A stretch of DNA of 64,000 nt from Candidatus Micrarchaeota archaeon CG10_big_fil_rev_8_21_14_0_10_45_29 (GCA_002778455.1 PFCD01000002.1:19203-83202), one strand, 5' to 3'. Positions 3,207 to 64,000 are shown, numbered from the stretch's first letter. Translations and numbers: made by a program. Notes: generated by a model not told the origin, from the letters alone.

Positions 3207-3340
3207 GGGCCCGTAGCTCAGCTTGGATAGAGCGATGTCCTCCTAAGAAACCTTTTCTTTTCAAAAAAGAAAAGCTTTCATGGAAAAGAAAACTTTTAGG
3301 AGCAAGACAAAGGCCGAGAGTTCAAATCTCTCCGGGCCCG
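3207..3340 (+). tRNA. tRNA-Arg(CCU) with a 59-nt intron at the canonical 37/38 position (intron 3246-3304)
   Basis: Acceptor GGGCCCG/CGGGCCC, D-arm GCTC-AGCTTGGATA-GAGC, T-arm GAGAG-TTCAAAT-CTCTC. Anticodon loop is CT-CCT-AA. Intron TTAGGAG (3296-3302) pairs with the anticodon region in BHB style. There is one A-A mismatch at 27-43. Confidence 0.8.
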
Positions 3341-6330: not shown

Positions 6331-8238
6331 ATGTCAAAAATAATAGGTATCGATTTGGGAACAAGCAATTCGGCGGCAGCGGTGTTGGAGGGCGGAAGGC
6401 CTGTGCTTATACCCTCGGCAGAAGGCGCAAGCCTTTATGGAAAATCATTTCCATCCGTTGTTGCAATCACAAAAGACGGGCAAAGGCTGGTAGGTGAGCC
6501 TGCAAGGCGCCAGGCAGTTTCAAATTCGCAAAACACCATGACTGCCTTTAAAAGAAAAATGGGCACCTCCTACAAATACAAGCTGGGGGGAAAAGAATAT
6601 TCCCCGCAGGAATTATCCGCAATGGTGCTCTCAAAAATAAAAAAGGATGCGGAGGCTTTCCTTGGCTCAAAAGTAGAGCGCGCGGTAATTACCGTGCCCG
6701 CATATTTTAACGACAACCAAAGGCAGGCAACAAAGGATGCGGGTGAAATTGCGGGGCTAAAAGTTGAGAGAATAATAAACGAGCCTACCGCGGCATCACT
6801 CTCTTACGGGCTTGACAAGGCGGGACAGGAGCAAAAAATCCTTGTCTTTGATTTGGGGGGCGGAACTCTGGATGTCACAATAATGGATTTTGGCGGGGGC
6901 GTATTCGAGGTAAAATCCACCTCTGGAGACACCCAGCTTGGCGGAACCGACATGGACAACGCGCTTGTGGATTATTTGGTGGGAGTTTTTCTGCGCGAGA
7001 GCGGAATAAACATACAAGAGGACCACATGGCAATGCAAAGAATGCGCGAGGCGGCGGAAAAGGCAAAAATAGAGCTTTCCACAACCCTTGATTCTGAAAT
7101 TAATCTGCCTTACCTTACGGCAACAAAGGAGGGCCCGAAGCATTTTGCCCACAAGCTTACCCGCGCAAAGCTTGAGGAAATAGTGGATCCCATTATACAG
7201 CGCTGCAAAGCGCCCATTACAAACTCGCTAAAGGACGCAAAGCTGACTGCCGACAACATAGACAAAATAATTATGGTAGGCGGCCCGACAAGAATGCCTA
7301 TAGTGCAAAAATTTGTTGAAGGGCTTGTGGGAAAGAAAGTCGAGTATGGAGTAGACCCGATGGAATGCGTTGCATACGGCGCAGCAATTCAGGGGGGCGT
7401 GCTGGCAGGGGAGGTAAAAGACGTGCTTTTGCTTGATGTCACCCCCCTTTCCTTGGGAATCGAGACGCTTGGAGGCGTATTCACAAAACTTATTGAGCGC
7501 AACACAACAATTCCCACGAAAAAATCCCAGATATTTTCAACAGCATCAGACAACCAGCCCTCAGTCGACATTAAGGTGCTGCAGGGCGAGCGCTCTATGG
7601 CAGCAGACAATGTGGAGCTTGGGCGCTTCTCGCTTGTAGGAATAGCGCCCGCGCCGAGGGGAATGCCGCAAATAGAAGTAACCTTTGACATTGACGCAAA
7701 CGGAATCATAAACGTTTCTGCAAAAGACAAAGGAACCAACAAAGAGCAAAAAATCCAGATAAGCGCGCCAAACAAAATGCCAAGCGAGGAAATAGAGCAA
7801 AAAATGAAAGACGCGCAAAAATTTGCAGAAGAGGACAAGAAAAGGGCGGAAGAGGCGCAAATACTCAATGAGGCGGAGGCTACGGTGTATCTGGCAGAAA
7901 AAACCCTAAAAGAGCACGGGGACAAGGTGCCTGAGCTAAAAACAGATATTGAAGAAAAATTAAAAGCCCTAAAAGAAGAGCTTGGCAAAAAGCCGGCAGA
8001 CGCGCAAAAAGTAAAATCGGCGCTTGAGGAGCTCAACTCCCACCTGCAAAAAATAGGCGAGAAATTATACAAGCAGCAAGGGGGCTCTCCCGGCTCGGGC
8101 GGCGAAAACGCGGGCTCCGGGGAACAGGGAAATTCCGGCTTCGGCGCACAAGGTGGAGGAGGCGCGGGAAAAAATGAAGGCAGCGGTGGCTCTGGGGGAA
8201 AAGACGAGCCCATTGACGCGGATTTCAAGAAAAAATAA
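6331..8238 (+). CDS. dnaK: Hsp70 chaperone DnaK
   Basis: [10 protein letters not shown] and DLGGGTLDV motifs. 635 aa with a Gly-rich C-terminal tail. Confidence 0.98.
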
Positions 8239-9951: not shown

Positions 9952-10977
9952 ATGTTCAAGCCATTAAGCAAATGGATGCAGGAGAAAAACTCCGCCTATT
10001 ACAAATCCCCCAACACCTTAATTTATGATGATTTTGCAACCTATGCCCAATCAGAAAAAGGCATGCTAACTTCCGCCAACGCGCGCGACTTTTACTCTTA
10101 TGCAAAAAAAATTGAAAAAAAGCAATACAACATATTGGAAGTAGGGGTGGGAAACGGCGCCTTTTGCGCCGGCTTTTTGGAAGAGATTGCCCGGCTTGAT
10201 GAGAAAAACAACACCTCTATTCTCTCAAAAATAAATTACGTGCTTGCAGATTTTTCCAAGCCAGCGCTTGAGAGGGCGAAAAAATTCAATATAAAACTCT
10301 CTATTTTCTGCGAAATAAAAACAATGTTGCTTGATGCCTCAAAAATGCCGGGCACACCTGAAAAACAAGGCGCAAAAAAAGAAAAAAATAAAAACACAGC
10401 AAATTTCAAGGATATAAAATTTGATTTTATACGCTGCAACGAGCTTTTCTCGGATTTGCCTGCAAACCTTTATTTGCAAAACGAGGATGGCATTTTTCAC
10501 GCGTTAATAGATGAAAAAATGCAGCCTAGCCTTGAAATTGCGCAAAATCCGGATGAGCTTGAGAGAAAGCTTCTTCTCTCTTTGCCAAAAAATATGCTTA
10601 TTCCGATAAACCGGGCAGCGGCTGATTCCATCCTTTATTTCTCAAGCCTGCTTGGCGATGGGGGCCGCATGGACATCTTTGACTACGGGTTTTACAAAAA
10701 AGAGGATTTTGGCATACCCGCGCAAATGTGGAATTTTTCAATAGTGCGGGACTTTGGAGGGCAATGGACGGTTGATTTAAATTTTCTCTATCTTGCAACC
10801 CTTTTCTCATCCTTAGGCAAAAGCGCGCACGTTGAGGCGCAAAAAGAGTATGTGCAAAAAATAATGCAAAAAAAGCTCTCATTATCCGAGGAGAACGGGC
10901 TTGATTATTCGCAAAGCAAGGATAATTTCGAGGAGGATGACTCGTTTTACCACATGCGAATCCAAAATAGCGAATAA
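9952..10977 (+). CDS. Class I SAM-dependent methyltransferase (family uncertain)
   Basis: Motif I ILEVGVGNGAF. ATG lies 7 nt after the dnaJ stop, in the position held by prmA-type methyltransferases in bacterial dnaK operons. Confidence 0.55.
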   Translation: MFKPLSKWMQEKNSAYYKSPNTLIYDDFATYAQSEKGMLTSANARDFYSYAKKIEKKQYNILEVGVGNGAFCAGFLEEIARLDEKNNTSILSKINYVLADFSKPALERAKKFNIKLSIFCEIKTMLLDASKMPGTPEKQGAKKEKNKNTANFKDIKFDFIRCNELFSDLPANLYLQNEDGIFHALIDEKMQPSLEIAQNPDELERKLLLSLPKNMLIPINRAAADSILYFSSLLGDGGRMDIFDYGFYKKEDFGIPAQMWNFSIVRDFGGQWTVDLNFLYLATLFSSLGKSAHVEAQKEYVQKIMQKKLSLSEENGLDYSQSKDNFEEDDSFYHMRIQNSE

Positions 10978-57150: not shown

Positions 57151-57501
57151 TTAAAGCTCAAAATGCATCTGAATGGTCTCCCTTCCGGCTAAATCCGCAA
57201 TATAGGTATAAAAGCCCTTTTTCTTGTACCAAGAGATTACTTTCTCCTTATTGTATGCATGCGCAAGCAAATATGTGCAGCCTATTTCTGCCCTTATGCT
57301 TATCGCCTTCTTGACGGCAAAATCCAGCAATATGCTTGCAGCCCCTCTCCCCTCTTCGTTTTTGTCTGTAGCAAGTTTTCCTATAAGAAGAGCAGGGAAT
57401 GATTTCGGAAAGTCCTTGGGGTAATCCTTGAGCTTTTTATTGCAGAAAACAAATTCTTCGCTTTTCTCCGGCAACTTCATGGCGCCCATGCTTAGAGCCA
57501 T
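57151..57501 (-). CDS. GNAT N-acetyltransferase, toxin-like; ATG-initiated part only
   Basis: Acetyl-CoA motif EEGRGAASILLDFAV. The same frame stays open 83 codons further upstream (to 57750) and encodes the expected GNAT N-terminus (ISILREEHSPLLEKFDCENAELNEFLQKDALGY...). That stretch has no ATG/GTG/TTG start. Confidence 0.65.
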   Translation of the reverse strand: MALSMGAMKLPEKSEEFVFCNKKLKDYPKDFPKSFPALLIGKLATDKNEEGRGAASILLDFAVKKAISIRAEIGCTYLLAHAYNKEKVISWYKKKGFYTYIADLAGRETIQMHFEL

Positions 57502-57707: not shown

Positions 57708-57845
57708 CTATCTTATCTCGATATTGAGCTTTCTTGCCCTTCGCATAGTTTCATCCCTTGCCGGATTTTTCCTGCCTATACTGGCCAAAAAGCGCTTTGC
57801 CTCTTCAACTGTTAATTCGACCACATAGTCAATTGCCTTTGCCAT
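57708..57845 (-). CDS. Small ORF (45 aa) in the antitoxin position upstream of the GNAT gene
   Basis: MAKAIDYVVELTVEEAKRFLASIGRKNPARDETMRRARKLNIEIR. It overlaps the open GNAT frame. Not listed in the ORF track because it is under 60 aa. Confidence 0.4.
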   Translation of the reverse strand: MAKAIDYVVELTVEEAKRFLASIGRKNPARDETMRRARKLNIEIR

Positions 57846-57960
57846 ATCTATAACCACTATAGAGATATCTAATATAAATCTACTCATTTAGAATATAAAA
57901 AACCAGCATATTTCTAATTTCGCCAGCCAAACGTCCCCACGATTAAAATTATCCATCTTA

Positions 57961-58197
57961 TCACTCTAAGTATTTGTTCCAGGCTTTGCTCTCTTTTGGA
58001 TCATTCCAGTAATCAAGATTGGAGTTTTCCATGGCAAAACGGCTAATCTCCTCGTTTTCTGCTATTTTCTTTCTCTCCTTCTCGTCAAAGTCCCTCAATG
58101 CCATGCGCAGAATTTCCACTTTTGAACCCCCGTATCCTTTTTTGACATATTTTTGTATAAGCTCCTCGTAATAGTTGCCCAAATTAAAGTTAACCAT
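57961..58197 (-). CDS. Ribbon-helix-helix (CopG-like) protein, orphan antitoxin/regulator
   Basis: MVNFNLGNYYEELIQKYVKKGYGGSKVEILRMALRDF fits beta-strand, helix, helix. No partner gene lies in the 115 nt downstream. Confidence 0.55.
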   Translation of the reverse strand: MVNFNLGNYYEELIQKYVKKGYGGSKVEILRMALRDFDEKERKKIAENEEISRFAMENSNLDYWNDPKESKAWNKYLE

Positions 58198-58431
58198 GTT
58201 AAAGCACCAATTGTATATGTGCAATAAATGCTTAATAAATGTATCTTTAATATACATAGAAGCACCCAAAATGGCGGAAAAAGGGAGATACAAGCCTTAA
58301 GCAACAATCCATAAGGAAATATCGAAAATCTCTAATCCAAATCCCCTCACATCAAGTTTGCCCCATGTATGGGCGGGAAGGCTTGCGCCCTCCCCTCTCC
58401 CCTTAACCGCCATCCTGCCTGCAGGCAAGCG

Positions 58432-58974: not shown

Positions 58975-59712
58975 TTATCCCAGAGTCCAGCCGCCATCCA
59001 CAACTAAAATTTGCCCTGTAATGTATTCCGCCTTGTCCGAGCACAAAAACGTTGCCACTGTGGCTATATCTTTGGGCGTTCCGCGCCTTTTCCAGGGTAT
59101 TCTTGCGGCAATCTGCTCCCTTGCTTTTGCATCCATGGAACCCTTTGTTCCAGGCGTATCTATGCCTCCGGGCGCAATTGCGTTTATGTTAATTTTTTTA
59201 GATGCAAGCTCTAAAGCCGCAGAGCGCACAAGCGCATTCATTCCCCCCTTTGAGGCGCAGTAATGGGAGAGGCCTGAAAAGCCAATCATTGAGGCAATAG
59301 AGCTAATCATCAAGATTTTTGAGCCGGGCTTCATTATTTTAGATGCTTCCTTTATGGCAAAGAAACTGCCCTTCAAATTAGTATCAAGGACCAAATCCCA
59401 GTCTTTTTCCTCTATTTGGCTTATGGATTTGAAGGGGTAAATGCCTGCATTATTTACAAAAATATCTATTTTTTTGAATTTGTTTTTTGTTGTTTTTATG
59501 AGATTTCTTATTTGATTTGTATCTGAAACATCACAGGCAATTCCAAGCGTTTTTACCTTGTATTTTGAGGCGATTTTTTTGGCTGTTTTTTCGCAGTCTT
59601 TCTGGTTTAGGGAGGCAATAATTACTGTTGCTTTTTCTTTTGCAAACTCTTCTGCTATCCCAAGCCCTATTCCCTTTGTAGAGCCGGTTATTATTGCTAC
59701 TTTATTTTTCAT
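58975..59712 (-). CDS. Short-chain dehydrogenase/reductase (FabG-like)
   Basis: TGSTKGIG cofactor motif, NNAG and catalytic YCASK. 245 aa. Confidence 0.92.
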   Translation of the reverse strand: MKNKVAIITGSTKGIGLGIAEEFAKEKATVIIASLNQKDCEKTAKKIASKYKVKTLGIACDVSDTNQIRNLIKTTKNKFKKIDIFVNNAGIYPFKSISQIEEKDWDLVLDTNLKGSFFAIKEASKIMKPGSKILMISSIASMIGFSGLSHYCASKGGMNALVRSAALELASKKININAIAPGGIDTPGTKGSMDAKAREQIAARIPWKRRGTPKDIATVATFLCSDKAEYITGQILVVDGGWTLG

Positions 59713-59742
59713 TGAAAAAGAGAGGGGGAGGGAGTTTAAAAG
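59623..59742. repeat. Direct repeat A (120 bp): SDR promoter-proximal region plus codons 1-30
   Basis: 114/120 identical to 61878-61997 by hand alignment. Confidence 0.95.
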
Positions 59743-59826
59743 AAAGAGGGGTTAGCTTGTTGGTTTCAGTTTTACTTTGCCAAAGCCAGATACCATGGAG
59801 AGAGAAGAGAGATAAATGACAAAAAA

Positions 59827-60972
59827 CTATTTCTTTGCCTCAAGCCCCTTCACGAAACCAATCAGTTTTTCATGAAGAGTTATCAACAGACTTTTATCAT
59901 AAAATGGTTTATTGGATTTCTCAAGGAGAAGATTAATTTCCTTGTAAGTTTCCCAGAACTGCATCTCCTTGAGTGTAGCTTTATTATCCTCCGCACTTCG
60001 GATAAAAAATTTGTAAGTTATATCCACATTGCTATTGCTTAGGCGAGCAGACACCAAAGTGCGTATGCGTATGGCTTCTGAGAGAAGTTCAGACAAATCA
60101 GCCTTTGGGCTTTTATTTGAATGATAATTTGTTATAGCTTTTTCTAGAGTAGCCAAATCCTGTTGGGATGGGTTTATCGGCTTCTCCGCAATCTTTGCAA
60201 AGAACATTCTCAGAGGTTCAGTCGGCTCTTTTTCAGGGATGTTTGTTAATTGTCGGTAGTTAATATAAGGGTCAAATTCTTTTTCATTTTCTAGTGCCAT
60301 CGTGTGAATGGGAGAACCTAAACAATCAGCATATCCAATCTCATAATGGCAGTAAGTACTTTTTAGTTGGTAGTTTTTTGAGGCGACGACAATGATACTC
60401 TTGGAATTTCGTATGGAATCCTTTATTCCGGGGTGCCATTCCTTCCCGTGTTTAAGATCCTTGTGGGCTATGAATGCAATGTAATCAGCACGCTCTAGAA
60501 TTTGTTCAACTGCTTTGGCAATATCATAATCGTAGCTTGAATGACAGATGAAAAAATCCACCCCCTTAGTGCTATTTTTAGGAATGTCAATTCTAGAGTC
60601 TATTAACCGTGTAAGATTTTCGGGAGTTAGAACGTCACCATCTTTCAAAACAGTCCTTCTAGTTCTAATCCGCGATATTAAAGCTGGAGAATGAAGGCGA
60701 ATTGTGTCCAATAACCTAGATACAGTTCCATTCTTTACAAAAATTCCATAAGAGATTGAATCTTTTATTGAAGTCAATCCAGCGATGCTGTCCTTTAATT
60801 CAGATACGGCCGCATGATCCCACGAAGGATCCACAATCTCTAATAGCCCCTTTATCTGTGAACATATATCTACACATTTTCCCTTAAACTTATCAAAGGA
60901 ATATGTCGTATAAGCAGGGATATAACTAAGATCAGCTTCGAGGTTATTCAGTTCAGAATCGCTCAACGCCAT
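59827..60972 (-). CDS. TIR-domain protein with unassigned N- and C-terminal domains (381 aa)
   Basis: Central region VDFFICHSSYDYDIAKAVEQIL...GKEW...IRNSKSIIVVASKNYQLKSTYCHYEIG matches the TIR pattern (D-F-F-I-S/C-H, ...ivV.S.n...S.w...E). Confidence 0.8.
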   Translation of the reverse strand: MALSDSELNNLEADLSYIPAYTTYSFDKFKGKCVDICSQIKGLLEIVDPSWDHAAVSELKDSIAGLTSIKDSISYGIFVKNGTVSRLLDTIRLHSPALISRIRTRRTVLKDGDVLTPENLTRLIDSRIDIPKNSTKGVDFFICHSSYDYDIAKAVEQILERADYIAFIAHKDLKHGKEWHPGIKDSIRNSKSIIVVASKNYQLKSTYCHYEIGYADCLGSPIHTMALENEKEFDPYINYRQLTNIPEKEPTEPLRMFFAKIAEKPINPSQQDLATLEKAITNYHSNKSPKADLSELLSEAIRIRTLVSARLSNSNVDITYKFFIRSAEDNKATLKEMQFWETYKEINLLLEKSNKPFYDKSLLITLHEKLIGFVKGLEAKK

Positions 60973-61172
60973 GTTAGTTCCCCTGATGCTTTCTCTAGTC
61001 GAGAGTACATAAAAAACTACGCTAGGCTATCTCACTGCCTTAAACTCCAATTTTTTCCCTATTTTGAGTGTGCAGACAAGCTCCACGGATTCAAAATTTT
61101 TCCCAAAAACTTCAATTTCAAGCAAGTTTAGATAATGTTTTACCAGACATTGTCGTTGGTCTCTAAAAGTAC

Positions 61173-61664
61173 TTATCTAATGGCATTTCTAAGATCAACC
61201 AGTTCACTCCTTATTTCCTTATTTATACGAATATCCTGCTTATGTTTACGTTCCAGGTCTGACAAATATTTCTCGTTGGACTTTATGATATTACGTATAA
61301 ATCTATTTATGTGATACGAACTTGGAACTCTGGAGTTCCTTTTGTTCCCCGTAGGTTTATGCAAAGATAATACAAGCGCCTCGAGATCCTTGACATATTT
61401 TACTTTTTTTATTATGATCAATTTGAATCTATCCCATTTTTTTGCATGTCTATCTTTTATGTGGTCTTTAACCCGTTTATGTAGATTATTTGCCAAACCA
61501 ACATAATAAAGCTCATCGTCTTTGTATAATCCATATATCCCTGAATATTTTCTAAGAAGAGTCTTGATCTCATCTTTCAACCAGAAATTTTCTAGAATGT
61601 CACCTGGAAGTGGCTTTGAAATCTCTTTTACCAGAGAACCGCGGCTACTTTTCTTTTTAGGCAT
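61173..61664 (-). CDS. GIY-YIG nuclease-domain protein (163 aa)
   Basis: SGIYGLYKDDELYYVGLANNLHKRVKDH plus a downstream Glu (DLEALVL) fit the GIY-YIG core. Helical charged C-terminus. Confidence 0.75.
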   Translation of the reverse strand: MPKKKSSRGSLVKEISKPLPGDILENFWLKDEIKTLLRKYSGIYGLYKDDELYYVGLANNLHKRVKDHIKDRHAKKWDRFKLIIIKKVKYVKDLEALVLSLHKPTGNKRNSRVPSSYHINRFIRNIIKSNEKYLSDLERKHKQDIRINKEIRSELVDLRNAIR

Positions 61665-61826
61665 ACTCAGCTACAATAGCCACAGCGTAAGGAATATTTT
61701 TATGACTTACCATATAGCCACTGGATTCATGACAGCTATTTTTATAGGAACCCGCATAAAAGAGTAGCATGGAGCAGCGACTTATTAATGGATACCTAGC
61801 AGGCATTGGCAGTATCACTGCCACCA

Positions 61827-61967
61827 TTATGCTTGGCATATACACACTAAATAATCTTTGGGCGTACCAACCCAGACTACTGCTGCTTTTTCTTTTGCAA
61901 ACTCTTCTGCTATCCCAAGCCCAATTCCCTTTGTGGAGCCGGTTATAATTGTTACTTTATTTTTCAT
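61827..61967 (-). pseudogene. Truncated SDR 5' fragment (46 codons)
   Basis: MKNKVTIITGSTKGIGLGIAEEFAKEKAAVV then divergence and a stop. The first 30 codons lie inside direct repeat B. Confidence 0.8.
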
Positions 61968-61997
61968 TGAAAAAGACAGGGGGAGGGAGTTTAAAAG
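61878..61997. repeat. Direct repeat B (120 bp)
   Basis: 114/120 identical to 59623-59742. Confidence 0.95.
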
Positions 61998-62106
61998 GGT
62001 TTAATATTGGGCGTGAGAAATGTACTAGGTCACATGAGAATTTTTATATGCTACTGGGTTGGCACCTCTAGGTAGGAATTTAAAGTAATGGAGTTAAATA
62101 AGACCG

Positions 62107-64000
62107 ATGGATTTTATCACCCTTGGAAAAGAGAAAAAGAAAATACCGGTGGCTATCAGCTACGGGATAATATCACTTTTTTCAAAAGGTCTATACAAAA
62201 GTGGTAACAAGGCAATCGAGGAACTCGTTACAAATTCGTTTGATGCGATGGCCAGTAATGTATATGTTGAGTTTCCGGATGACCATACTGACAAAGACGC
62301 AAAAATAGTTGTGATAGATGATGGAGAAGGCATGGATGATTCTGGATTTGAAAACCTTTGGAAAGTTGGAAAGAGTTATAAGCGAGAACATGAGATAGCT
62401 GGAAGAAGAAAATCCATAGGGAAATTTGGAATAGGAAAGCTGGCAACATACATACTAGCATCTAAATTGACTCACATCTCCAAGAGAGATGGAAAATTTT
62501 TAGCAACCACAATGGATTATGAAGATATCGATAAAGAGGGAGATGGAGAGATTAGGACCAAAGAGAGAAAAATAAGCATGCGTGAGCTAAGCCGAGAAGA
62601 GGTTGAAAAGGTAATACAGCAGCTTCCTGAATTCCCTCCAGGAGATCGTACAACATATAATGATAAACTTTTGGGGGTAAGGGCGTCTAAAACCTGGACT
62701 ATTGCTATTATGTCCAAACTAAAAGATCTGGCTCGAGGAGTTCAACGAGGGAGATTAAGATGGATCCTAGAAACTGCCATGCCACTCAGAGACGATTTCA
62801 ATATTTTTCTGAATAGGGAAAAGCTGAAGCCATCTAAGATCAAGTTTGAGAAATACGGTAAGTGGGTTCTCGGAAAAGATATCAAGGCAAAGGAACTTGG
62901 ACCGACCGCTTCAGATAAATGGGAAGCTCTTAAAGATGGAAAAAAGAACTATTTTTTGACACATCCTGAACTAGGAAAAATCTGGGGCTATGCTGAGCTA
63001 TACAAAGATATCTTGGAAGGTGGAAAATCTGACACGACTGGAAGAAGCAATGGATTTTTTGTCTATGTGAGAGAAAGACTTGTGAATATAGAAGATCCGT
63101 ATTTTGGTCTGGACAGTAACAAGCTCTGGCACGGGACATTCTCAAGGTTCAGATTAGTGATTCATATTGATTCACTCGATGAGGAACTGCGCTCGAGCAG
63201 GGAGGTCGTGCAAGAAGGAGTACTAATGAATACAACAAATAATCTACTTTATTCAGTATTTAACTTCTTGGACAAAGAATACAAAAAAAAGAAAAAACAA
63301 GATGATCCTGATCGCAAGACGACTGCACGAGTTGAAGGAGTTGCTAGAAGCCTCACTCGGAGACCAATTCTATATGCCTTGAGGAGATCCATCGAGGAGG
63401 ATATTTCCTTAAAATATATGAAATTTGGAGAGATATCGAAAAGCAAAGATAAAAAACAAGCACTCGAGTTTCTAAGTTCTAAGACAAAGGAGGGAGAGTT
63501 TTTCAAAGAGTTTTCAGTAGAACCTACTGGGGACCAGTACGTGTTGACCTTTGATATCGAAACTGGAAGGGTGGTAATCAACAGCTTGCACCCATATATA
63601 TGTCTCTTGATGGGGGATTATAATCTCAATCCGGCTCAGTTGCAATTATTTGCAGTGTCTGAAATATTGCTTGAGGCTTATTTGTATGAGGCAGGCATAG
63701 CATATTCACAGATTATGGATATTCTTGAGACGAGAGATGAGATATTCCGGGAACTAGCCAGAACGTCAAGCAGAAAATCGGCTTATGCCATTGCACAGAA
63801 TCTCTGTGATTCCGCGAACGATGAGAAGAAACTGGAACAGGCACTGGTCGAATGTTTCGAATCCTTAGGTTTCTATGACGTTGCACCCATATCTGGAAAG
63901 GGGGAACCAGATGGAATTGCCAGCGCAAGATTACCTTACAGTGATGGAAAGCATCAGTCATACAAGGCTACGCTGGAAGCAAAGAGTAAACAAAAACCCG
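62107..64000 (+). CDS. GHKL (Hsp90/MORC-like) ATPase fused to a PD-(D/E)xK (Mrr-like) nuclease region; 3' end outside window
   Basis: Not in the ORF track because there is no stop in the window. Hand translation from the ATG at 62107 is open to nt 64000 (631 codons). It has N-box EELVTNSFDA, G1 DDGEGMD and G2 GKFGIGKL. Near the end, ECFESLGFYDV..GKGEPDGIA...(x19)...LEAKSK fits D...ExK. Confidence 0.8.
   Translation, partial: MDFITLGKEKKKIPVAISYGIISLFSKGLYKSGNKAIEELVTNSFDAMASNVYVEFPDDHTDKDAKIVVIDDGEGMDDSGFENLWKVGKSYKREHEIAGRRKSIGKFGIGKLATYILASKLTHISKRDGKFLATTMDYEDIDKEGDGEIRTKERKISMRELSREEVEKVIQQLPEFPPGDRTTYNDKLLGVRASKTWTIAIMSKLKDLARGVQRGRLRWILETAMPLRDDFNIFLNREKLKPSKIKFEKYGKWVLGKDIKAKELGPTASDKWEALKDGKKNYFLTHPELGKIWGYAELYKDILEGGKSDTTGRSNGFFVYVRERLVNIEDPYFGLDSNKLWHGTFSRFRLVIHIDSLDEELRSSREVVQEGVLMNTTNNLLYSVFNFLDKEYKKKKKQDDPDRKTTARVEGVARSLTRRPILYALRRSIEEDISLKYMKFGEISKSKDKKQALEFLSSKTKEGEFFKEFSVEPTGDQYVLTFDIETGRVVINSLHPYICLLMGDYNLNPAQLQLFAVSEILLEAYLYEAGIAYSQIMDILETRDEIFRELARTSSRKSAYAIAQNLCDSANDEKKLEQALVECFESLGFYDVAPISGKGEPDGIASARLPYSDGKHQSYKATLEAKSKQKP

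Follow-up and report, generated by a model that had tools for sequence, protein, structure and literature searches.

Adjoining TIR, GIY-YIG and GHKL-Mrr genes of a Micrarchaeota genome are probably independent modules of a defence island

The window analysed here is a stretch of 64,000 nucleotides from the genome of Candidatus Micrarchaeota archaeon CG10_big_fil_rev_8_21_14_0_10_45_29, a DPANN archaeon. Genes for a TIR-domain protein, a GIY-YIG nuclease and a GHKL ATPase are all present at positions 59743-64000. The features of this region and of the short-chain dehydrogenase (SDR) gene at its border are the following.

58975..59712, minus strand: intact SDR/FabG-like short-chain dehydrogenase gene, 245 aa (ORF; Pfam adh_short_C2, E 2.9e-71)
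59623..59742, no strand: proximal copy of a 120-nt direct repeat (repeat search, 95% identity; alignment and mismatch positions)
59827..60972, minus strand: TIR-domain protein, 381 aa (ORF; Pfam TIR_2, E 8.3e-13 at aa 140-217)
61173..61664, minus strand: short GIY-YIG nuclease, 163 aa (ORF; Pfam GIY-YIG, E 4.1e-7)
61657..61845, minus strand: small ORF of 56-62 aa, putatively coding, which overlaps the start of the GIY-YIG gene (ORF call; no Pfam match)
61827..61967, minus strand: 46-aa ORF whose first 30 codons copy those of the SDR gene, after which the two differ (frame translation; called as a gene with a weak adh_short match on the identical metagenome contig L005)
61878..61997, no strand: distal copy of the same repeat (120 nt), outer boundary of the TIR/GIY-YIG cassette (repeat search, alignment)
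62107..64000, plus strand, running off the window: first 631 of 826 codons of a GHKL (HATPase_c_3) ATPase whose C-terminal part is predicted to be an Mrr-like PD-(D/E)xK domain (HATPase_c_3, E 6.4e-26)

A sequence-only reading of this DNA had described three consecutive genes in AT-rich surroundings, two of them 200 nt apart within one repeat-bounded cassette and the third divergent and outside it, and this description holds. ORFs and Pfam matches place the TIR, GIY-YIG and GHKL genes in that order; the GC content is 0.36-0.43 in this region, compared with 0.45-0.49 for the window's core part; the gap between the TIR and GIY-YIG genes is exactly 200 nt (60973-61172); and the repeats that enclose these two genes (59623-59742 and 61878-61997) end before the GHKL gene begins on the opposite strand at 62107. 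By inspection of the sequence, each of the three genes has its own TATA-like box and 3' oligo-T run; for the TIR gene these are a TATA-like TTTTTTAT, accompanied by AGGGG, 5' of the ATG and a T6 run directly 3' of the stop codon.

The cassette that holds the TIR and GIY-YIG genes is 2.25 kb long, and its flanking 120-nt direct repeats are 95% identical. The proximal copy covers the SDR promoter, with a TATA-like TTTTAAA box approximately 31 nt 5' of the ATG, and runs through the first 90 nt of SDR coding sequence. The locus would thereby document an unusual event, the insertion of 2.25 kb at the 5' end of the SDR gene with duplication of an archaeal promoter and of the first 90 nt of the target gene. 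The 46-aa ORF is presumably a leftover of the SDR gene or a second copy of its 5' end. It is proposed that the TIR gene lies beside the GIY-YIG gene because both arrived, or were assembled, in this one insertion. No integrase was found among the ORFs and Pfam matches of the cassette, and no cassette-free SDR site was found among all contigs that encode the exact SDR protein, every one of which carries the cassette. A circular form of the cassette was considered and rejected: a 2,276-nt Logan contig that spans the cassette exactly from one repeat to the other, with 21 nt of overlap between its ends, is an assembly-graph break. The two repeat copies have an identical stretch of 39 nt, and the contig stops at the last 31-mers around it that are specific to one copy.

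The TIR protein comprises a helical N-terminal region (residues 1-130), a TIR domain (approximately residues 138-260) and a helical C-terminal domain (residues 265-381). Its AlphaFold model matches the TIR domains of SARM1, SPARTA, AbTir and ThsB (Foldseek probability 1.0), and in an alignment Glu211 (in STYCHYE) falls at the position of the Glu in the plant TIR motif SSWCLDE (WC..E). The catalytic role of this Glu is established for SARM1 and plant TIRs. A HMMER search of 1.84 billion representative proteins produced 334 matches, only one of which shares residues 134-380, and found no relatives of residues 1-130, a region that is modelled with low confidence; one close relative (P0001) differs at the N-terminus while retaining both the TIR and the C-terminal part. 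A metagenome scan for the subfamily recovered a single locus (P0013), already in the set, and no relatives were found in 2.9 million viral contigs. Judged by these comparisons, the protein is nearly an orphan. Its PADLOC matches are to ThsB profiles (weak, 5.6e-9) and to the single-gene candidate PDC-S66. As a single polypeptide with a variable N-terminus and a TIR domain it resembles stand-alone TIR NADase defence proteins such as PDC-S66 and fusions of TIR with sensors, but the PDC-S66 match is partial and weak (6e-8) and the C-terminal helical domain is common to only one other known protein.

In the GIY-YIG protein a basic, conserved N-terminus precedes the GIY-YIG core, and a single long helix forms the C-terminus; the structure model of the protein is poor (pLDDT 60) and places the nuclease core and the helix with low confidence. 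Apart from a weak match to a group I intron endonuclease model (5.9e-4), it matches GIY-YIG only in Pfam, NCBIfam and PADLOC. In one alignment of relatives the catalytic-type residues Y44, Y53/Y54, R64, H68, E95 and N107 are invariant; in another, of 64 sequences, which numbers residues one lower (R63 for R64, H67 for H68, E94 for E95), R63, H67 and E94 show no variation, with Y43, Y52, Y53 and N106 nearly invariant. Relatives occur at 70 genome loci across bacteria and archaea and in three further metagenome contexts, with none in 2.9 million viral contigs. GIY-YIG-RAMA fusions are, according to a published proposal, candidate modification-dependent (type IV) restriction enzymes (PMC11037411). 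The window protein belongs to the same clade, shares its invariant residues and has relatives in restriction-modification neighbourhoods, but it lacks RAMA/DUF4357, which is present in 45 of 64 relatives, and ends in the single long helix. RAMA-less forms are a minority, mostly archaeal, and the window protein places such short forms of the clade in DPANN archaea. The genes immediately beside the relatives belong to 72 Pfam families downstream and 62 upstream, the commonest being restriction-modification methylases. The closest homologues (70%, 46% and 42% identity) each have unrelated adjoining genes, encoding a 306-aa protein, a DUF2971/PDC-S31 protein and a convergent 124-aa protein. A common partner was rejected after BLASTP found the downstream genes to be unrelated, one of them being the stand-alone candidate PDC-S31. 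Another gene downstream of a close homologue has a sub-threshold HEPN match only (0.014).

The full GHKL protein of 826 aa was read from L005, an identical metagenome contig of 12.5 kb. In 28 homologues there is no variation at D602, E624 and K626 of its C-terminal PD...ExK motif. Mrr_cat falls below the Pfam cut-off of 21 bits in the protein itself (18.1 bits, E 0.003) and scores 28.6 bits (1.6e-6) at the aligned position of a homologue (P0256). Just past the end of the window, 48 nt 3' of the GHKL gene and on the same strand, the same contig encodes a 427-aa N6_N4 methyltransferase (PADLOC MTase_II, 6.8e-44; N6_N4_Mtase, 2.7e-15) with the motifs FCGCG and SPPY. Full-length homologues of the GHKL protein number more than 1,767, at approximately 845 aa and 42-46% identity. 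In two unrelated bacterial contexts (L094-96 and L097-99) the GHKL homologue is followed, 15-65 nt 3', by a methyltransferase homologous to that of L005 (BLASTP E approximately 1e-33 to 1e-35); the pair therefore appears to be a restriction-modification-like module of its own. The pairing of the genes is observed directly; the GHKL protein is the predicted restriction component, and the biochemistry of the pair is likewise predicted. Some homologous loci add ResIII/SNF2 helicase genes. PADLOC assigns the GHKL protein to REase_II (1.3e-10), and its ATPase domain, the adjoining type II-like methyltransferase and the conserved gene order all resemble those of type II restriction-modification systems in which the endonuclease carries a GHKL/HATPase_c_3 domain at its N-terminus. 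It differs from the BbrUII/HgiDII group (NCBIfam NF050001), however, in scoring 58 bits against a cut-off of 550 over residues 28-161 (the ATPase domain) only, and in belonging to a separate large family of proteins of approximately 845 aa with an Mrr-like C-terminus. Searches of the PDB with the protein sequence and profile returned Hsp90-type ATPase domains only; a plasmid search returned distant N-terminal matches only, and the 2.9 million viral contigs a single distant N-terminal match. These comparisons define a large and conserved, uncharacterised pairing of GHKL-Mrr proteins (more than 1,700 homologues of approximately 845 aa) with methyltransferases.

The sequence-only reading had weighed a cautious interpretation, a defence island of independent modules, against a bolder one in which a TIR signal generator is coupled to nuclease effectors. 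The comparison of neighbourhoods supports the former and tells against the latter: no two of the three genes are linked in any homologue examined, whether at the 70 + 3 GIY-YIG contexts, the three TIR contexts or the two GHKL contexts, an outcome which that reading had itself named as refuting the coupling. Within 6 kb of the 70 GIY-YIG loci there is neither a TIR gene (by an HMM built from 225 domains) nor a GHKL relative (by phmmer). No GIY-YIG or GHKL gene occurs near TIR relatives in the available contexts, which number only three because the TIR protein is so rare, and no TIR or GIY-YIG gene occurs in the two bacterial GHKL contexts, where the conserved partner is the methyltransferase. 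The best reading, with a probability of roughly 0.75, is a defence island in which three or more modules function independently: the GHKL-methyltransferase pair, the TIR protein and the GIY-YIG protein, each with a putative activity of its own. The methyltransferase would mark host DNA and the GHKL ATPase-nuclease would cut unmarked incoming DNA. The TIR protein would work alone as a sensor-effector, its lineage-specific N-terminal region, swapped in one close relative, sensing infection, upon which NAD+ consumption by the TIR domain, which has the catalytic-type Glu211, would arrest growth. The GIY-YIG protein would be a stand-alone DNA nuclease from a clade that in bacteria usually carries RAMA and lies in restriction-modification neighbourhoods. 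The main use of the analysis is to prevent wrong annotation of three adjacent genes for nucleotide- or nucleic acid-directed proteins as a new TIR-nuclease system.

Among the alternatives, the best placed, though unlikely, is that the GIY-YIG gene is a selfish, homing-endonuclease-like element that moved into the SDR gene with the TIR gene as cargo, its role being mobility rather than defence. The very different neighbourhoods of the family, the DNA similarity to the 70% identical homologue, which stops at the edges of the coding sequence, the want of an integrase in the cassette and the weak group I intron endonuclease match are consistent with such an element. However, 120-nt direct repeats of the target are not a product of homing; domain searches found no I-TevI-type DNA-binding module; the gene is not inside an intron or intein, as distinct from those of GIY-YIG homing endonucleases; and a search around four related loci returned no cassettes bounded by repeats. 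The absence of relatives from the viral contigs also argues against selfish mobility, as does the resemblance of most relatives, with RAMA and beside methylases, to restriction enzymes.

More doubtful is the proposal that the TIR and GIY-YIG genes are a minimal two-gene Thoeris-like system in which infection leads the TIR protein to make an ADP-ribose-derived signal that directs the GIY-YIG nuclease to degrade DNA. Thoeris combines a ThsB TIR protein with a signal-activated effector. The window TIR protein, with its catalytic-type Glu and weak ThsB matches, is adjoined in the same orientation, within one cassette, by a potential effector enzyme with intact catalytic residues, and Thoeris types with DNase effectors have been predicted by a recent survey (10.64898/2025.12.03.692087), although neither "GIY" nor PF01541 occurs in its text or in the supplements examined. 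The differences from Thoeris are several. The 163-aa GIY-YIG protein has no room for known signal-binding domains such as SLOG, Macro, SAVED and CARF and no match to them, nor a recognisable signal-binding domain in Pfam, NCBIfam or PADLOC. The pairing of TIR and effector is not conserved (none of three TIR contexts, none of more than 70 GIY-YIG loci), the 200 nt between the genes contain a T5 run and a separate TATA-like box, and the TIR protein is extended at both ends by further domains, as are stand-alone sensor-effector TIR proteins. The shared repeat-bounded cassette is the sole remaining argument for coupling: since the two genes are adjacent and co-oriented inside the same pair of repeats, they were perhaps acquired as a unit. 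The cassette shows physical co-location and not conserved linkage, and closeness does not demonstrate joint function. Had the pair formed only recently, comparisons would show no sign of it, and it is a long shot, fainter again than the minimal Thoeris-like system, that the two genes are a very young or very rare DPANN TIR-signalling system, with a 163-aa effector devoid of known ligand-binding domains, that moves as a 2.25-kb integrase-less cassette rebuilding the promoter and 5' end of its target.

It is very improbable that one or both cassette genes are decaying, inert passengers; the pair is known from one strain-level sequence only, 100% identical in every recovered contig, and the N-terminal region of the TIR protein has no relatives and a low-confidence model, but both reading frames are intact with all catalytic-type residues conserved. 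A single three-component system of TIR, GIY-YIG and GHKL-nuclease, favoured by physical proximity within low-GC DNA only, is scarcely credible and, as far as gene neighbourhoods indicate, already contradicted, given that the GHKL gene is divergent, lies outside the repeats with its own TATA-like box, is paired elsewhere with a conserved methyltransferase where neither TIR nor GIY-YIG is present, and has no relative at the 70 GIY-YIG loci or the TIR loci. Since DPANN archaea have tiny genomes, so dense a defence island is of some ecological interest.

The three genes in question are best explained as members of a defence island of three independent modules, in which a GHKL-Mrr protein and a methyltransferase would carry out restriction-modification, a TIR protein would act as a stand-alone sensor-effector, and a short GIY-YIG protein would act as a stand-alone nuclease. 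The sequence-only reading had placed these genes in low-GC DNA, with the TIR and GIY-YIG genes 200 nt apart inside a repeat-bounded cassette and the GHKL gene divergent and outside the repeats. ORF positions and domain matches confirm the genes, and the layout holds in each of these respects (window coordinates; SDR, short-chain dehydrogenase):

61997-61878, minus-strand order, distal 120-nt repeat
61967-61827, minus, 46-aa SDR-fragment ORF
61845-61657, minus, small ORF
61664-61173, minus, GIY-YIG gene
61172-60973, 200-nt spacer between the GIY-YIG and TIR genes
60972-59827, minus, TIR gene
59742-59623, minus-strand order, proximal 120-nt repeat
59712-58975, minus, intact SDR gene
62107 to past the window end, plus, GHKL gene

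The GC content is 0.45-0.49 in core metabolic genes and 0.36-0.43 from ~53 kb onwards, where the genes are hypothetical or defence-like. An intron-containing tRNA at 3207-3340 (Rfam, 47 bits; missed by ARAGORN) is consistent with an archaeal origin of the window. In NCBI, both the GIY-YIG protein and the GHKL protein belong to a Crystal Geyser MAG of Candidatus Micrarchaeota, where they are encoded on a 372-kb contig.

The GHKL gene could be read to its end on L005, one of five metagenome contigs 100% identical to the window. The full protein of 826 aa matches HATPase_c_3 (Pfam, E 6.4e-26) and has more than 1,767 full-length homologues (~845 aa, 42-46% identity); a PD...ExK motif in its C-terminal part is invariant across 28 homologues, and Mrr_cat is sub-threshold (E 0.003) in this protein and significant in one aligned homologue. 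The N-terminus matches PADLOC REase_II (1.3e-10) and, far under the family cut-off, the ATPase domain of the BbrUII/HgiDII restriction family (NCBIfam). On the same strand, 48 nt downstream, is a 427-aa type II-like DNA methyltransferase (L005 5468-6751; N6_N4_Mtase 2.7e-15, PADLOC MTase_II 6.8e-44) with FCGCG and SPPY motifs. A homologous methyltransferase follows the GHKL homologue by 15-65 nt in two unrelated bacterial contexts, both of which lack a TIR or GIY-YIG gene. GHKL-Mrr proteins paired with a methyltransferase seem to make up a large restriction-modification-like family that is still uncharacterised. Because the GHKL gene has its own methyltransferase partner and its own TATA-like box outside the repeat (AATTTTTATAT, read from sequence), it is assigned to a restriction-modification-like module and not to the cassette. 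In bacteria, ResIII/SNF2 or Z1 helicase genes sometimes accompany the pair.

The GIY-YIG protein (Pfam GIY-YIG, 4.1e-7) has Y44, Y53/54, R64, H68, E95 and N107 invariant in nine relatives and invariant or nearly so over 64 aligned sequences; a word-based search gave nine relatives, and a genome scan located 70 loci in many bacterial phyla and DPANN archaea. A C-terminal RAMA/DUF4357 domain is present in 45 of the 64 relatives, most members being 230-260 aa; the window protein lacks this domain and is one of the short forms. GIY-YIG-RAMA fusions have been noted as candidate type IV restriction enzymes (PMC11037411). The adjoining Pfam families are heterogeneous (72 downstream, 62 upstream), most commonly restriction-modification methylases and helicases. 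No TIR or GHKL relative was found in the scanned loci by tblastn, nor within 6 kb of them a TIR (HMM built from 225 TIR domains) or a GHKL relative (phmmer). The three closest homologues adjoin unrelated genes, one being the stand-alone defence candidate PDC-S31, and DNA similarity to a 70%-identical homologue stops at the coding-sequence borders. The GIY-YIG gene is without a conserved partner.

Short GIY-YIG homologues on three other contigs lie beside three different genes, all defence-type (L019 2580-6495, L033 3651-6405, L010 8001-9278): in one case there is a 20-nt overlap with the end of a 1,126-aa Eco57I/MmeI-like enzyme, in another the homologue comes after an AAA_13 ATPase, and in the third it precedes a DUF2971/PDC-S31 protein. 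The 70%-identical gene, from another Micrarchaeota genome (L007), is in a segment flanked by two tRNA-like 3' ends (6515-6540 and 10386-10411), possibly a variable stretch lying between tRNA genes. A basic motif in residues 1-25, M-x-KKKS-x-RG-x-LV, kept in archaeal and bacterial members at ~40% overall identity, may be a DNA-binding arm.

The TIR protein (381 aa; Pfam TIR_2, 8.3e-13) has an AlphaFold model with pLDDT of 80-93 across the TIR and C-terminal domains, which matches SARM1, RPP1, SPARTA, AbTir and ThsB (Foldseek). In an alignment, its Glu211 falls on the Glu of the plant 'WC..E' motif, the catalytic residue of enzymatic TIRs. A word search gave one homologue, and exhaustive HMMER over 1.84 billion representatives gave 334 TIR matches, among which residues 134-380 are shared by a single relative (P0001), residues 131-298 are found in three further relatives, and the N-terminal 130 residues have no relative; the protein is nearly an orphan. 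P0001 has a different N-terminus, which suggests that the TIR and C-terminal parts form a constant body to which exchangeable sensor regions are joined. GIY-YIG and GHKL genes are absent from the contexts of P0001, P0011 and P0013, the relatives compared (the contigs of P0012 being too short).

With no conserved linkage of any of the three pairs in the homologue contexts examined, a single TIR-GIY-YIG-GHKL system is not borne out, and this absence together with the GHKL gene's own methyltransferase favours the defence island of independent modules. A minimal TIR-nuclease pair of TIR and GIY-YIG, kept in consideration given the rarity of the TIR subfamily, is quite improbable; the adjacency of the two genes is its sole positive support. 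Independent transcription is plausible from the signals: the GIY-YIG gene has a ATAAAAATAT box ~35 nt upstream (read from sequence) and a T5 run 63 nt past its stop; upstream of the TIR gene are TTTTTTAT and AGGGG, and its stop is followed at once by a T6 run. The 2.25-kb cassette is the sole evidence of a shared TIR/GIY-YIG history, and bears on co-location, not function. Its repeats (95% identity) differ by six mismatches, of which three are synonymous, two non-synonymous and one non-coding, as if the copies came from two functional alleles. Each repeat opens with a TATA-like box, which precedes the SDR start by ~31 nt, and takes in the gene's first 90 nt; insertion therefore preserved a complete SDR gene and duplicated an archaeal promoter and 5' end, the second promoter copy (in the distal repeat) being directed into the cassette. 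No integrase was found in the cassette, no empty site among contigs encoding the exact SDR protein, and no similar repeats around four related loci; the insertion could be site-specific or a single-crossover integration of a circular element with a related SDR 5' segment.

The island extends past the window end: L005 455-4858 contains an HNH endonuclease gene and an MjaV-type restriction-modification pair, whose enzyme matches PADLOC REase_II (1.4e-22) and whose methyltransferase matches MTase_II (3.5e-96), followed by a YhcG/NucS-like protein (PDC-S02, 4.5e-49). At the island edge, a small GNAT acetyltransferase adjoining a 59-aa ORF and a ParD-like ribbon-helix-helix protein (57151-57501, 57708-57887, 57961-58293) look like toxin-antitoxin modules.
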